DNA of 64,000 nt from a virus (taxonomy: Duplodnaviria > Heunggongvirae > Uroviricota > Caudoviricetes): the IMG/VR virus record IMGVR_UViG_2713896908_000007, one strand, 5' to 3'. Made by a program: the position numbers and the translations under genes. The notes beneath the pieces were generated by a model, which was not told where the DNA came from, searched no databases, and was given only the letters and a program-made list of their open reading frames with translations. Shown here one piece after another: positions 12,249-21,008 of this stretch; within the stretch, counting starts at the first letter, position 1, and the number at the start of each line of letters is the position of its first letter.

Positions 12249-13114
12249 TTAAGTTAATTCTTTCAGCGCCAGTACATGAAATGGCTGAAGCATTTAAGCG
12301 GGTATTCGCAAATGCAGATAATGTGGATGTTGTAGAAAAAACATTTGAAGCAATCCCGGAATTTGACTGCATGGTCAGTGCGGCAAACAGTTTCGGGCTA
12401 ATGGATGGCGGCGTTGACGCTGCCATTACTGCATTCTTTGGTACTCAGTTACAGACACGTGTTCAGAATCATATTCTTCGTGAATATCTTGGTGAGCAGC
12501 CTGTAGGCACTGCATTTGTTATTGAAACGGGGGATAACAACCATCCCTGGCTGGTACATGCGCCAACAATGCGCGTTCCGCTGACCATTGACGGAACAGA
12601 CGCTGTATATAACGCCACGTGGGCTGCTTTACTTGCCATCTTTCAGCACAATAAAAATGCAACGACAGACAGGAAAATAAAGACGGTGGTATTCCCTGCA
12701 ATGGGGGCCGGATGTGGTCAGGTGCCGTTTGAAAGTGTTGCCCGGCAGATGAAGCAGGCATGGGATAACTTTAATAAAAAAACAGAAGCAATTAACTGGG
12801 AATACGCACACTCCCGCCAGTTGGCAGTATTTAATACATGCGCGTACTGCCCGGGTACTCCTGTTTGTCGTTATGCGGATATTAAATATATTGGACTTGG
12901 CGATTACCGGACGTATTGCTTACGGTCGGGGCAGGTATGCATTAATCCTGAACATCAGGTTGATGACGTGCTGACTAATAATCGTTCTCGCCCGGGGGCG
13001 CATATGCATCAGATTAATCCGGTAAAATCCGTAGGTAATATTGCCATTGGCGCACACAGCCACGGAAGGAATATCACCATTGGTGCTCATTCCCATACCC
13101 CACATAAACAATAA
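12245..13114 (+). CDS. macro-domain protein with tail-fibre-like Cys-rich and IGAHxH C-terminus
   Basis: 289-aa ORF, ATGA overlap with fibre gene stop; macro signatures [40 protein letters not shown]-terminal GAHMHQ…IGAHSHG…IGAHSHTPH. Confidence 0.7.
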
Positions 13115-13138
13115 TTCTTTCTCTGATTAGAGGTGAAA

Positions 13139-13717
13139 ATGACTTTCAGAATGAGTGCTGAAGCACAAACCATTCGCGTATTTAATTATCTCGATGGTAC
13201 AAATGAATTTATTGGAGAAAGTGATGCCTATATTCCACCACATACAGGGCTTCCGGCAAACAGCACAGATATTGCTCCTCCTAAGATTCCAGCTGGTTTT
13301 GCCGCTATATTCGACACAACCCGAAACTTATGGAATTTAATAGAGGACCATAGAGGAAAAACTGTTTATCACACTGAAACAGGTGACGCTAAAACTATAT
13401 TTAAATTAGGCGCTTTGCCTGAGGATGTTACGTGCATTCCTCCTGATGATGAGTATCAGAAGTGGAATGGAAATCAATGGGTTACAGACGATGAGGCGAA
13501 GCATCAAGCTCAGATAACCTATGCAAACTCAAAGAAAAATGAGTTGTTAAAGCACGCAAGCGTAGAGATAGCGATCTTACAAGATGCTGTTGATTTATGT
13601 ATTGCAACAGATGAAGAGAAAGTTTTATTAAATGAATGGAAAAAATACAGAGTGCTTGTAAATAGGTTAAATGAAGATGACATCATTCAAATGAAAGTCC
13701 CTGAAATACCAGTTTGA
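13139..13717 (+). CDS. tfa: tail fibre assembly protein (lambda Tfa / P1 U family)
   Basis: MTFRMSAEAQTIRVFNYLDGTNEFIGESDAYIPPHTGLPANSTDIAPP… closely parallels lambda Tfa; ATG 13139 preferred over track GTG 13133. Confidence 0.9.
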   Translation: MTFRMSAEAQTIRVFNYLDGTNEFIGESDAYIPPHTGLPANSTDIAPPKIPAGFAAIFDTTRNLWNLIEDHRGKTVYHTETGDAKTIFKLGALPEDVTCIPPDDEYQKWNGNQWVTDDEAKHQAQITYANSKKNELLKHASVEIAILQDAVDLCIATDEEKVLLNEWKKYRVLVNRLNEDDIIQMKVPEIPV

Positions 13718-13733
13718 TTTATATATTAATAAG

Positions 13734-13770
13734 CCACTGTTGACAGGACTGTTTTACAGTGGTTTGTTTT
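13734..13770 (+). terminator. rho-independent terminator of tail-fibre operon
   Basis: Stem ccactgt/acagtgg followed by tttgtttt. Confidence 0.6.
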
Positions 13771-13771
13771 A

Positions 13772-14920
13772 TTATCCAAACCAATTTTCTAGAACATTTT
13801 CAAATTTATGGGTAACTTGCCACCATAAATAGTTCTCTAATACATATTTCTTTCCGTTATTTGCAATTTGTTCTAATTTTTCGGAGTGTAATGTTTCATA
13901 TATATCACTAGCTAAACTTTCTGGCAACATTGGTTCATTTATATGAAATCCTGTATGGTTATTTTTTACAAATTCAACCATTCCACCTCGAGTGCTAACT
14001 AAAACGGGTTTTCCTGCCCCCATAGCTTCTATAGCAACCATGCAGAACGGTTCTTGAAACTGAGATGGGATTACAACTAGATCGGCTATAGGATAGTAAC
14101 GGTACATATCATCTGGTTTTACCCCGCCAACAAGATGACAACGCGAACCAATAGTTCCAGCAAGTTCCCTTACTTGTTTTTGATATGCAGCTTTTTCTCC
14201 TTTATCTTTATTATTGTAGTCACCAACAACTACAAGTTCTATATTGTCACATGATTTTATCAATTTTTTAAACGCTTGTAATAGTAAAACAGTCCCTTTT
14301 TCAGGGGAGATCCTTCCCGCATAAAAGATAACTTTTTTCTCAGAGGGAATGCCTAAATCTTGTTTTGTTAGCGGGGGTAGCCCTTTATCTAGATTGTGTG
14401 GTTCTGTACCATTAGGAACTATACAAATTTCAGCGTCAGGAAGATGTTTTTCATAAAAATCCTTTAAATACTGACTTGGAACAAGCATTTTCACATTGCT
14501 ATCTAGCCCTTTCGGTGTAAAGGCATTATGCATATGCATTATCATTTTTGCGTCAGGAGCTTTCTCTCTAATTTGACGATAAAGTTTCATGCTGTTATGA
14601 ACAATAATAATGCTATCGTTTGTGATATTGAAATCTTTAGCAATGTTTAACACTCGTTGTGAATATGGAATAGGATCTATTCTGCTCCATTTTTGAAATA
14701 TCCGTTTATAAAGACGGCTAAACCCTATTCTATGGATAGAGCATCGCTCATTAACAATATCTTTTTCTGAGAAACCATCCTCTCGAATGCATGCTATACG
14801 ATTTGGTATTCTTGTTCTCTTTGCGACTTGATATATCCAAGTTTCAACAGCTGCTGCGCCACGAGGTGGTATTGAAAATATTGGTGTAACTGTAAATATT
14901 AATTTGTCAATCATGAGCAA
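13772..14920 (-). CDS. GT4-family (GT-B) glycosyltransferase
   Basis: 382-aa ORF; C-terminal EX7E-type motif region …VSTRGGMVEFVKNNHTGFHINEP…; AT-rich codon usage; TTG start overlapping upstream gene. Confidence 0.8.
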   Translation of the reverse strand: MLMIDKLIFTVTPIFSIPPRGAAAVETWIYQVAKRTRIPNRIACIREDGFSEKDIVNERCSIHRIGFSRLYKRIFQKWSRIDPIPYSQRVLNIAKDFNITNDSIIIVHNSMKLYRQIREKAPDAKMIMHMHNAFTPKGLDSNVKMLVPSQYLKDFYEKHLPDAEICIVPNGTEPHNLDKGLPPLTKQDLGIPSEKKVIFYAGRISPEKGTVLLLQAFKKLIKSCDNIELVVVGDYNNKDKGEKAAYQKQVRELAGTIGSRCHLVGGVKPDDMYRYYPIADLVVIPSQFQEPFCMVAIEAMGAGKPVLVSTRGGMVEFVKNNHTGFHINEPMLPESLASDIYETLHSEKLEQIANNGKKYVLENYLWWQVTHKFENVLENWFG

Positions 14921-15458
14921 CTATCCTCTTATAATCTTTTTCCTTTAAATGTTTTTTTGGGGTTGCGGGAGAGCCCGCATACATTGTATTAGCAGGAACA
15001 TCAGTATTTACAACGCTATTTGCAGCTATAACACTATTGTCTCCTATTTTTACACCTGGTAGCACAGTTGTATTTGCCCCAATCCAAACATTACGGCCTA
15101 TTTTTATTGGAGCGCAAATTGTTTCTTTGGGACGTTTGCTTGGTGTTAGTGGATGCGTGACAGTTGTTAATACAACGTTGGGGCCAATGGCAGAGTTACA
15201 TCCAATATCTATTGTTTTTGCATCGAGAAAAACACAATTTGCGTTAATGAAGACCTTTTTATCAATAATTATATTGCCATTCTCAAAATAAAATGGAGCT
15301 GTTATTGTTGAGTCTTCACTTACTTTAACTCCTGTTTTTTTTAATGTGATTAATTTTTTTCTTTTTGAGATCAAGGTATAATTAAATATATGTCTTGCTT
15401 TCTTTGCTTTCTTTTTTTGAAAAATTATATAGAAATAATATGTTAGCAAATCAAACAT
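14907..15458 (-). CDS. hexapeptide-repeat (LbH) sugar O-acetyltransferase (maltose/galactoside acetyltransferase family)
   Basis: …IGCNSAIGPNVVLTTVTHPL…IGRNVWIGANTTVLPGVKIGDNSVIAANSVV… hexapeptide repeats; Lys-rich N-terminus encoded by A7-A8 tracts. Confidence 0.8.
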   Translation of the reverse strand: MFDLLTYYFYIIFQKKKAKKARHIFNYTLISKRKKLITLKKTGVKVSEDSTITAPFYFENGNIIIDKKVFINANCVFLDAKTIDIGCNSAIGPNVVLTTVTHPLTPSKRPKETICAPIKIGRNVWIGANTTVLPGVKIGDNSVIAANSVVNTDVPANTMYAGSPATPKKHLKEKDYKRIVAHD

Positions 15459-15482
15459 TGTTGTTTTACTTCCATTTAAAAT

Positions 15483-15812
15483 TTAACTATCAAATGTGGC
15501 TCCTATTTCTCGCATTTTGTTAAGTATGATGTTTATTTCATTGCTACCGAGAGAAGTTTGGGCAGCTATGAAAAAAAGTATGTGCAATGACATAGATCTG
15601 TTATTTTCTTTGTTTATATATTTTCTCCACTGGCTATCGCTGCTGACCCCGGCTAGTTCTGCCATTTGATTCCCTGTATACCCAAGCGTTTCTTTGAATT
15701 GACGCAAATCTTGTGATTTGGGGGGGGTGTAGTTGTTTATTAACCTCATATTAAACCCATTATTGGTAAGCTTTCGTTGGTGTAATGGTAGCACCAATGG
15801 GGCTGCTGTCAA
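15483..15812 (-). CDS. small helix-turn-helix protein (putative regulator of the downstream acetyltransferase/GT genes)
   Basis: 109-aa ORF with TTG start (possible internal ATG start giving 88 aa); …LRQFKETLGYTGNQMAELAGVSSDSQWRKY… resembles an XRE-type HTH; AT-rich. Confidence 0.45.
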   Translation of the reverse strand: MTAAPLVLPLHQRKLTNNGFNMRLINNYTPPKSQDLRQFKETLGYTGNQMAELAGVSSDSQWRKYINKENNRSMSLHILFFIAAQTSLGSNEINIILNKMREIGATFDS

Positions 15813-15892
15813 GCGTCTTTTCTTTATAAATATAGGGAGCCATCAAAATCTGACATTAATTATCTATCGAAATATTTTGAATGACTGGTGAG

Positions 15893-15911
15893 AAGTTACT
15901 TTGCATACCAT
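15893..15911 (+). promoter_or_regulatory. candidate late promoter (AAGTTACTT-N4-TACCAT) for lydA-darA operon
   Basis: 9-bp inverted repeat plus -10-like hexamer about 30 nt upstream of the GTG start, which has an AGGAGG RBS. Confidence 0.5.
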
Positions 15912-19735: not shown

Positions 19736-20839
19736 TTATTCCCACTCTTGCAGGAAACGCTGACCGTACTGGTCGGCTACCAGCAGTGCAGCATAAACCT
19801 GATCTGGCGTTGCGCCGCCAGGCATGTTGTGGATGGTTTCACCTTCTGCACATGCCGCTTCTGCGACAATCCGCATTTTCGCCGGGATATCTTCTTTAAT
19901 ATCCAGTTGTGCCAGGGTAATTGGCAGGCCGACAGCATGGCACAGCGCAGCTACGGTTTCGATTTCTTCAACTGGTGCGTTTTCCAGAACCAGTTGCGTC
20001 AGCGTACCGAATGCCACTTTCTCACCGTGATAATAGTGATGCGCATCCGGAATGGCCGTCAGGCCATTGTGCACCGCGTGCGCCGCCGCCAGGCCGCCGC
20101 TTTCAAAGCCCACGCCGCTCAAATAGGTGTTAGCTTCAATCACACGTTCCAGCGCCGGAGTCACCACATGCTGTTCAGCGGCAAGCATCGCTTTTTCGCC
20201 TTCTTCCAGCAGGGTGTTGTAGCACAGTTCAGCCAGAGCCAGTGCTGCCTGAGTACATTTACCGCCCGCCATCGTGGTTGCGCCGCTGCGGGAACAGGCA
20301 CGTGCTTCAAACCAGGTTGCCAACGCATCGCCAATACCCGCCGCTAACAGACGTGCAGGTGCGCCAGCAACAATTTTGGTATCCACAATGACGCGTTCCG
20401 GGTTGTTTGGCAGCATCAGATAACGTTCAAACTCACCATCATCGGTGTAGATAACGGAAAGGGCGCTGCAAGGTGCGTCGGTTGAGGCAATGGTTGGGGC
20501 AACTGCAACAGGAACGCCCATAAAGTGTGCCAGTGCTTTGGCTGTATCGAGGGTTTTACCTCCGCCGATTCCCAGAATTGCGCTACACTGAGCATTCTCT
20601 GCAATACCCCGCAGACGATCGATTTCATTTTGCGAACATTCACCGCCGAACGGGGCAATTTCTACCTCTATTCCAGCATCTTTAAAACTTTTCTCAATAT
20701 TAGTTTGAGCAAAACCTAACACAAATTTGTCACCTACCACCAACCAATGTTCTGCCAGCGGTTTCAGGTATTCACCCAGGCGATTAATGACATCTGCGCC
20801 TTGGATGTATTTACCCGGTGATTGAATGATGCGGTCCAT
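19736..20839 (-). CDS. gldA: glycerol dehydrogenase (iron-containing alcohol dehydrogenase family)
   Basis: 367-aa ORF; N-terminus [30 protein letters not shown]… as in enterobacterial Gld[12 protein letters not shown] nucleotide-binding motif; AAAGGAG RBS; host-like GC content. Confidence 0.9.
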
Positions 20840-20989: not shown

Positions 20990-21008
20990 ACGTTACTTTG
21001 CATATGAT
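20990..21008 (+). promoter_or_regulatory. candidate late promoter (ACGTTACTT-N4-TATGAT)
   Basis: 9-bp inverted-repeat motif plus -10-like hexamer about 135 nt upstream of the 562-aa ORF; a second weaker copy (ATGTTACTT) at 20950. Confidence 0.45.

Follow-up and report, generated by a model that had tools for sequence, protein, structure and literature searches.

The stretch analysed here, hereafter the window, is 64,000 nucleotides (nt) of the tailed-phage record IMGVR_UViG_2713896908_000007. The window is a P1-like phage-plasmid, and its subject in this study is a cassette of three minus-strand genes at 13772–15749, in a region that a PLSDB comparison shows to be 99.9% identical to Escherichia albertii plasmids. 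In the direction of transcription, the cassette comprises a small XRE-like gene, a left-handed beta-helix (LbH) O-acetyltransferase gene and a GT4 glycosyltransferase gene (hereafter small gene, AT and GT; Table 1). It sits between a tail-fibre assembly gene and the lydA late promoter LPdar, converging on the operon formed by S, a macro-domain gene and a U-like assembly gene and diverging from LPdar, as an initial sequence-only reading of this stretch had described. The three minus-strand genes and their AT-richness were also read correctly: the cassette has 35.1% GC against 47.2% for the whole window, and 400-nt windows range from 27 to 39% in the cassette versus 45 to 55% in the flanks. This low GC resembles that of waa outer-core genes, such as waaK of E. 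coli core type R2 (37%).

The earlier description of three overlapping genes holds for one pair: GT and AT overlap by 8 nt, counted from the ATG start of GT, whereas the small open reading frame (ORF) lies 24 nt from AT. The GT ORF was listed as 13772–14920 from a TTG, with the ATG at 14914 as the likely true start. The small ORF, listed as 15483–15812, most likely begins at ATG 15749, where homologues from other genera begin to align, and not at TTG 15812, which belongs to the −35 hexamer of a promoter-like site.

Table 1 Features at and around the cassette, in window coordinates
Feature	Position	Strand	Description
Orphan cixR site	10167–10190	+	Inside S; 24/24 identical to P1 cixR
Replaced distal part of S (S, about 8817–12248)	10355–12248	+	P1 homology ends at 10354; resembles lambdoid side tail fibres
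Macro-domain gene	12245–13114	+	Pfam Macro 2.2e-19, phrog_2613 1.3e-136; in the tail-fibre operon between S and the assembly gene
Tail-fibre assembly gene, U-like	13133–13717	+	Pfam Caudo_TAP 4.9e-32; 36% identity to P1 U
Hairpin plus U-run	13728–13775	+	Between the convergent operons; likely S-operon terminator
GT	13772–14914	−	WaaK-family GT4, predicted lipopolysaccharide core alpha-GlcNAc transferase; 380 residues
AT	14907–15458	−	LbH O-acetyltransferase, Maa/LacA/NodL group; 183 residues
Small XRE-like gene	15483–15749	−	First cassette gene; 88 residues
Sigma-70-type promoter-like site	15785–15812	−	TTGACA-16-TACCAT, TG before the −10; 10/12
LPdar	15893–15911	+	P1 late promoter, identical to annotated P1 LPdar; P1 backbone homology from 15880

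Enzymes of the cassette

By homology, GT belongs to the WaaK family of lipopolysaccharide (LPS) core enzymes. It scores 657.9 bits against the NCBIfam model NF012028 (LPS N-acetylglucosaminyltransferase; curated cut-off 618), with residues 3–381 aligned to profile positions 1–379. Its EX7E motif (E288-x7-E296) is invariant in 10 sequences, and its C-terminal domain is of GT1 type (Glycos_transf_1, 3.5e-37). Identity to the waa-cluster WaaK of E. coli R2 is 60% over the full length, to Salmonella-type WaaK 54–59% and to prophage copies 67–72%. The E. coli homologue at 60% identity is flanked by a GT8 gene and waaL within a waa cluster, the position expected of R2-type waaK. In NCBIfam family, length and EX7E motif, GT agrees with the chromosomal WaaK (RfaK) proteins of Salmonella and E. 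coli R2, with which it aligns from end to end. It differs in lying outside the waa core cluster, on a phage-plasmid and adjoining tail-fibre genes, in being paired with AT and the small XRE-like gene, and in belonging to a separate mobile clade. The sequence-only reading had proposed a GT4 glycosyltransferase for surface polysaccharide, which the homology search narrows to WaaK, and the homologies point to LPS. Chromosomal WaaK is the alpha-1,2-N-acetylglucosamine (GlcNAc) transferase whose step finishes the outer core. The O-antigen ligase requires the side branch of terminal GlcNAc that this enzyme adds (PMC13293308).

A neighbour-joining tree of 23 copies places the mobile (phage or islet) copies in one clade (128 of 200 bootstraps) that is sister to R2-type waa-cluster WaaK (191 of 200), with Salmonella-type WaaK outside. 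Compared with the waa WaaKs, the N-terminal half of GT is 68–72% identical and the C-terminal half 51–55%; all six sites specific to the mobile clade lie in the C-terminal half and none in the N-terminal half. In GT-B enzymes the acceptor is usually bound by the N-terminal half. The 60% identity to R2 WaaK and the better-conserved N-terminal half suggest UDP-GlcNAc as the donor and the terminal glucose of the outer core as the acceptor.

AT matches the Pfam models Hexapep (7.4e-15) and Hexapep_2 (1.1e-11), and its best relatives in the PDB are LacA (1.3e-27) and Maa, in keeping with its earlier assignment as an LbH sugar O-acetyltransferase. Its VTHPL stretch aligns with TGHPV of LacA (1kqa), matching the histidine of the LacA GHPV stretch, which we take to be the catalytic His115. 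Scores against Maa (103.4 bits versus 314) and LacA (101.8 versus 347) fall far below the equivalog cut-offs, and AT belongs to the Maa/LacA/NodL group but appears not to be an ortholog of Maa or LacA. Close relatives (65–68% identity) are found in Mu-like Salmonella prophages, right after fibre and assembly genes, and a Cedecea homologue (54%) also sits after an assembly gene.

We favour the reading that the cassette is a functional moron that modifies the LPS core, and put its probability at roughly 0.6. The cassette would be transcribed from its own sigma-70-type promoter, against the late operons and independently of the P1 late activator. GT, as a cytoplasmic WaaK-type enzyme, would then use UDP-GlcNAc as donor and attach alpha-GlcNAc to the glucose that ends the outer core on lipid A-core, before this molecule is flipped across the inner membrane, and AT would O-acetylate a sugar hydroxyl, plausibly on the added GlcNAc. 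The altered core would present a different target to the O-antigen ligase and to core-binding phages, and the lysogen would gain masked receptors or exclusion of superinfecting phages. This last role, suggested by the constant linkage of the cassette to receptor-binding genes, is one that we rate at somewhat under an even chance.

The small gene, sister cassettes and their distribution

The small protein has no NCBIfam match and scores 16.9 bits against HTH_31, below the cut-off of 27. An AlphaFold (AF2) model built on 22 homologues has five helices and a predicted local distance difference test (pLDDT) score of 81.6. The leading Foldseek matches are all helix-turn-helix (HTH) proteins of XRE type (SinR, CapH, Aca1 and C proteins), with probabilities up to 0.99 but E-values of at least 0.05 and template-modelling (TM) scores of 0.4–0.7. 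The predicted fold is consistent with the small HTH protein of the earlier description, although the sequence match is weak. The protein probably binds DNA and regulates the cassette.

The small gene heads a family of cassettes. It has 102 homologues of 86–90 residues, and copies at 63–66% identity precede GT, WaaZ, OafA-type or LbH genes in other prophages. In Citrobacter braakii, it is followed by the Kdo-III transferase gene waaZ (TIGR04437, 318 bits against a cut-off of 200), converging on assembly-gene remnants; in Serratia marcescens, by an Acyl_transf_3 (OafA-type) O-acetylase gene, converging on a fibre gene; and in Cedecea, by an LbH acetyltransferase gene. The small-gene cassettes of other genera converge on tail-fibre genes every time. 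Upstream of the small gene in Salmonella, Citrobacter, Serratia and Cedecea lies a conserved ORF of 51 residues with a C-terminal membrane anchor (surveyed loci L009, 7465–7620; L022, 6263–6412; L060, 4787–4936; and L065, 4794–4931), of which the window retains a mere remnant at about 15760–15812. In the other prophages, a strong, GC-rich hairpin with a U-run follows this ORF and is separated from the small-gene start codon by only about 14 nt, a gap that leaves no room for a promoter and suggests control by read-through or attenuation.

The C. braakii site beside slp (loci L060–L064) looks like an integration hot spot. Its right-hand remnant is constant, consisting of the 51-residue ORF, the small gene, waaZ and assembly-gene fragments, whereas its left flank holds a CbtA/CbeA island, a P4-like element, a P2-like prophage, a SIR2 gene or DEAD helicases.

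The sister cassettes also bear on which glycan is modified. The enzymes might instead act at the cytoplasmic face on another envelope glycan (O-antigen units on undecaprenyl phosphate, enterobacterial common antigen or colanic acid), so that the cassette would be an unusual serotype-converting module of non-Gtr type. Such a role would suit the OafA-type O-antigen acetylase of the Serratia cassette and the scores of about 1e-20 that AT reaches on the models of WcaF (colanic acid) and WbbJ (O-antigen); moreover, Salmonella and E. albertii already have waaK, arguing for a different acceptor. The C. braakii cassette, however, carries WaaZ, an inner-core enzyme, GT aligns over its full length with R2 WaaK and is best conserved in its N-terminal half, and no flippase, polymerase or Gtr partner is present in the cassette. 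We consider modification of another glycan unlikely.

Genomic context separates the GT relatives by identity. Our survey took one genome per species, giving 24 loci, together with loci fetched earlier and viral contigs, and classified them with a reference panel. Relatives with at least 67% identity to GT are all phage-borne or in small chromosomal islets, and those with at most 63% (54–63%) all lie in waa clusters between a GT8 gene and waaL, including the chromosomal waaK of the E. albertii type strain (54%). Salmonella prophages at three chromosomal sites carry the small gene and GT, converging on assembly and fibre genes. One GT copy lies in a prophage remnant beside pagK; one islet adjoins umuDC and carries the small gene, another adjoins a Mor gene and is without a small-gene homologue, and further copies are found on IMG/VR viral contigs. 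A common Salmonella protein, P0032, was considered as the canonical Salmonella WaaK and rejected, its genomic context being a prophage remnant. Among isolated sequenced phages, a tblastn search found no close GT homologue, returning only a Salmonella chromosomal contig and a 1.7-kb ‘phage’ fragment at 55–59% identity.

In the E. albertii type strain (L046) and E. whittamii (L041), the waa cluster on the chromosome follows the Salmonella-type order waaY, one further gene, waaK and a convergent waaL. This order is a possible reason for the failure of an E. coli core-typing tool on E. albertii (PMC13293308).

On plasmids, the cassette accompanies the fibre genes. The 49.5-kb E. albertii phage-plasmid pEA32_4, which has a P2-like tail and an IncFII-type RepA, shares with the window the segment from the end of the macro-domain gene through the assembly gene, GT and AT at 85% DNA identity; its GT and AT proteins are 92% and 67% identical to those of the window. 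The macro-domain gene also stands beside related GT and AT genes in pEA32_4 and in IMG/VR contigs. Thirteen P1-like PLSDB records carry the whole region, and at megablast sensitivity no PLSDB record has the assembly gene without the cassette, which is present in these 13 and in pEA32_4. The cassette is thus linked to the receptor-binding (tail-fibre) module, and the most economical reading is an accessory operon for LPS-core modification that moves with this module.

The fibre module, the lost Cin switch and transcription signals

In P1, the order of genes is R, S, U, U′, Sv′, cin, lydC, LPdar and lydA, and the cassette occupies the place of U′, Sv′, cin and lydC. Nucleotide homology to P1 ends at 10354 inside S and restarts at 15880, just before LPdar. 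The replaced block of 5.5 kb (10355–15879) holds a new S tip, the macro-domain gene, the U-like assembly gene and the three-gene cassette. The segment lydC–cin–Sv′–U′–U–S has been counted among eight variable regions of P1-like phage-plasmids (PMC9603915).

With P1 Cin as the query, tblastn finds no match anywhere in the 64-kb window, and lydC matches solely its paralogue lydA. No long inverted repeat lies within 8–17 kb, and the cixR site inside S is the sole cix match in the window (0 expected by chance); a relocated cin or a second cix site within the 64 kb is thereby ruled out. These results agree with the earlier statement that no cin recombinase or inverted alternative fibre segment is present. 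The accompanying idea of a cargo replacement needs widening: the cassette does replace cin and the C segment, and lydC as well, but this was not a simple swap, as fibre tip, macro-domain gene, assembly gene and cassette were exchanged together. Because there is no Cin, no long inverted repeat and one cix site left, the inversion system is lost, and the orphan cixR is a relic of the Cin/C-segment host-range switch. The window keeps the position of that switch between S and lydA, cixR and the constant part of S, unlike the invertase, second cix site, U′, Sv′ and lydC; with these gone, the element has one fixed fibre type.

The protein encoded by the replaced part of S is 68–74% identical to the side tail fibres of phages Chlobot, 2H10, mEp332 and ev099, and the tip is lambda-Stf-like and not that of P1. 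The sequence-only reading had assumed a P1-like phage with an LPS-core receptor; the first part stands, whereas the receptor is unproven with a tip of this kind. The macro-domain gene, of ADP-ribose-binding or hydrolase type, has a C-terminal part with His-x-His repeats resembling the end of S, and in the Salmonella prophage remnant beside pagK (locus L019, 647–1528) a macro domain is fused to the assembly protein. The hairpin between the convergent operons is stable on the plus strand (−21.3 kcal/mol, z −4.7, with 0 of 200 shuffles as stable) and weak on the minus strand (z −0.7); a consensus terminator scanner did not call it.

Upstream of the cassette, the sigma-70-type site is the best-scoring promoter-like site in 13.0–16.3 kb. 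The window has just three P1 late-promoter boxes, at 8322, 15893 and 20990; each lies on the plus strand, so that none faces the cassette, and 13–16.5 kb contains no C1 operator. Control of the cassette by the P1 C1 repressor or the late activator was therefore rejected.

The absence of a facing late promoter also weighs on the possibility that the cassette serves the virion or the burst, by marking debris against progeny adsorption or by glycosylating a phage component, and converts no lysogen. The location between two late operons would fit such a lytic-phase role, as would the need for upstream read-through in the other prophages, where the hairpin leaves the small gene no promoter room. 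A further hint, the match of GT to Pfam GT4-conflict, has no extra meaning, because chromosomal WaaK proteins match that model equally. All three late-promoter boxes, however, are on the strand opposite to the cassette, and LPS made late in infection would hardly alter the existing outer membrane. We regard a lytic-phase role as improbable, the least likely of the alternatives considered here. A role as a defence system was rejected, with no PADLOC match for any of the three proteins.

Elsewhere in the window, 12 C1-operator-like sites (at most 3 mismatches; 0.26 expected by chance) are spread over 25717–63434, as expected for a P1-like immunity network. The third late-promoter-like box spans 20990–21008. 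A gene for an iron-type alcohol or glycerol dehydrogenase (19736–20839, minus strand), annotated gldA in a near-identical plasmid, coincides with a GC-rich island (about 19800–20600, 55–58% GC) where P1 has the start of ddrB, and is another cargo insertion. A search of 12–24 kb against Rfam gave no structured RNA match.

Proposed core modification, its rivals and known systems

Several observations weigh against a functional core-modifying cassette. It is rare, being found in 13 of 476 matching plasmid records; among 5,426 complete E. coli genomes, 10 have any match and 9 most of the cassette, all on plasmids. In the 99.9% identical E. albertii plasmid pEA16-1_1 (NZ_CP117651.1), a 1-bp deletion in a T-run at window position 14192 shifts the GT frame, through either real decay or a sequencing error; in two further plasmids (NZ_CP117630.1 and NZ_CP104510.1), ISKpn26 is inserted into the cassette. 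As a monophyletic group, the phage and islet clade has only moderate support, the total of promoter-like sites in the AT-rich 13.0–16.3 kb equals the shuffled expectation, and the receptors of lambdoid side fibres, which the fibre tip resembles, need not be LPS. Finally, many copies occur in Salmonella and E. albertii, which already have a chromosomal waaK and in which a second enzyme with identical specificity would be superfluous. It may be, then, that the phage copy acts on another acceptor, or that it matters mainly in hosts with other core types.

Rarity and the damaged copies would be natural if the cassette were a passive passenger, an LPS-gene fragment brought in by fibre-tip recombination and now decaying with no benefit to the phage, and the reduction of the 51-residue gene and hairpin to a remnant in the window points the same way. 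Selection argues otherwise: between lineages differing by 12–33% in DNA, the ratio of non-synonymous to synonymous substitution rates (dN/dS) is 0.07–0.11 for GT and 0.14–0.18 for AT, indicating that both are under purifying selection. Prophage backbones of P1-like, P2-like-tail and Mu-like type from several genera also share the arrangement, with different enzymes. We judge a passive passenger to be rather improbable, and keep core modification as the preferred explanation.

Lysogenic conversion of the O-antigen is textbook knowledge, and the LPS core is a receptor or co-receptor for many coliphages and the attachment site of the O-antigen. The gtrABC genes of P22 and Shigella phages and the Oac/OafA modules are, like our cassette, temperate-phage accessory genes that decorate LPS and alter phage adsorption, and the Serratia sister cassette carries an OafA-type gene, as do the Oac/OafA serotype-converting modules. 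Those systems rely on membrane proteins and a lipid carrier to modify the O-antigen on the periplasmic side, whereas our cassette encodes soluble enzymes of the cytoplasmic, core-assembly type; none of its three ORFs matches GtrA, GtrB or GtrC, and it contains no further ORFs.

Among phages, JL22 has an LbH acetyltransferase gene, ‘sacF’, in the same position after tfa and convergent, but with 40% identity over just 70 residues. Lambdoid phage Chlobot has a glycosyltransferase (phrog_1962) after tfa, a protein unlike GT. P2 Z/fun and sopE occupy a similar place after the assembly gene. The ecf operon of plasmid pO157 includes the core GlcNAc transferase WabB; a literature search for wabB with pO157 found nothing. 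The operon also places LPS-modification genes on a mobile replicon, although on a virulence plasmid and not a phage, with no link to tail fibres. These plasmid-borne genes of E. coli O157:H7 have been proposed to alter LPS structure (PMC2811833).

RefSeq already names the cassette genes automatically. In the literature that we searched (waaK or rfaK with prophage, P1-like cargo and core-modifying conversion), no study of the cassette or of a phage-borne waaK was found; one candidate account of core-modifying conversion (PMC8259012) was rejected, as it concerns GtrC-like membrane proteins. Phage-borne copies of the cell's own core-assembly enzymes that edit the LPS core are thus undescribed in that literature.

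A broader and more tentative possibility, which we think rather doubtful, is that temperate myoviruses of Enterobacterales share a modular receptor-editing cassette not described before: the conserved 88-residue XRE-like gene would head any one of several cytoplasmic LPS core enzymes that can stand in for one another (WaaZ, a WaaK paralogue, an OafA-type acetylase or an LbH acetyltransferase), and the whole would be exchanged along with the fibre tip, the phage WaaK clade possibly having a new acceptor. If so, the phage would carry both the key and the means to change the lock, and a new acceptor would yield core glycoforms made by no chromosomal waa cluster.

Since the core is both a phage receptor and the attachment site of the O-antigen, a mobile WaaK could change host range, serotype expression and in silico core typing, and because the O-antigen ligase needs the GlcNAc branch of WaaK, it could also affect O-antigen display. 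Carried by a phage-plasmid, the mobile WaaK moves among E. albertii, E. coli, E. fergusonii and Salmonella, and the conserved small gene offers a simple search handle for further cassettes of this sort.

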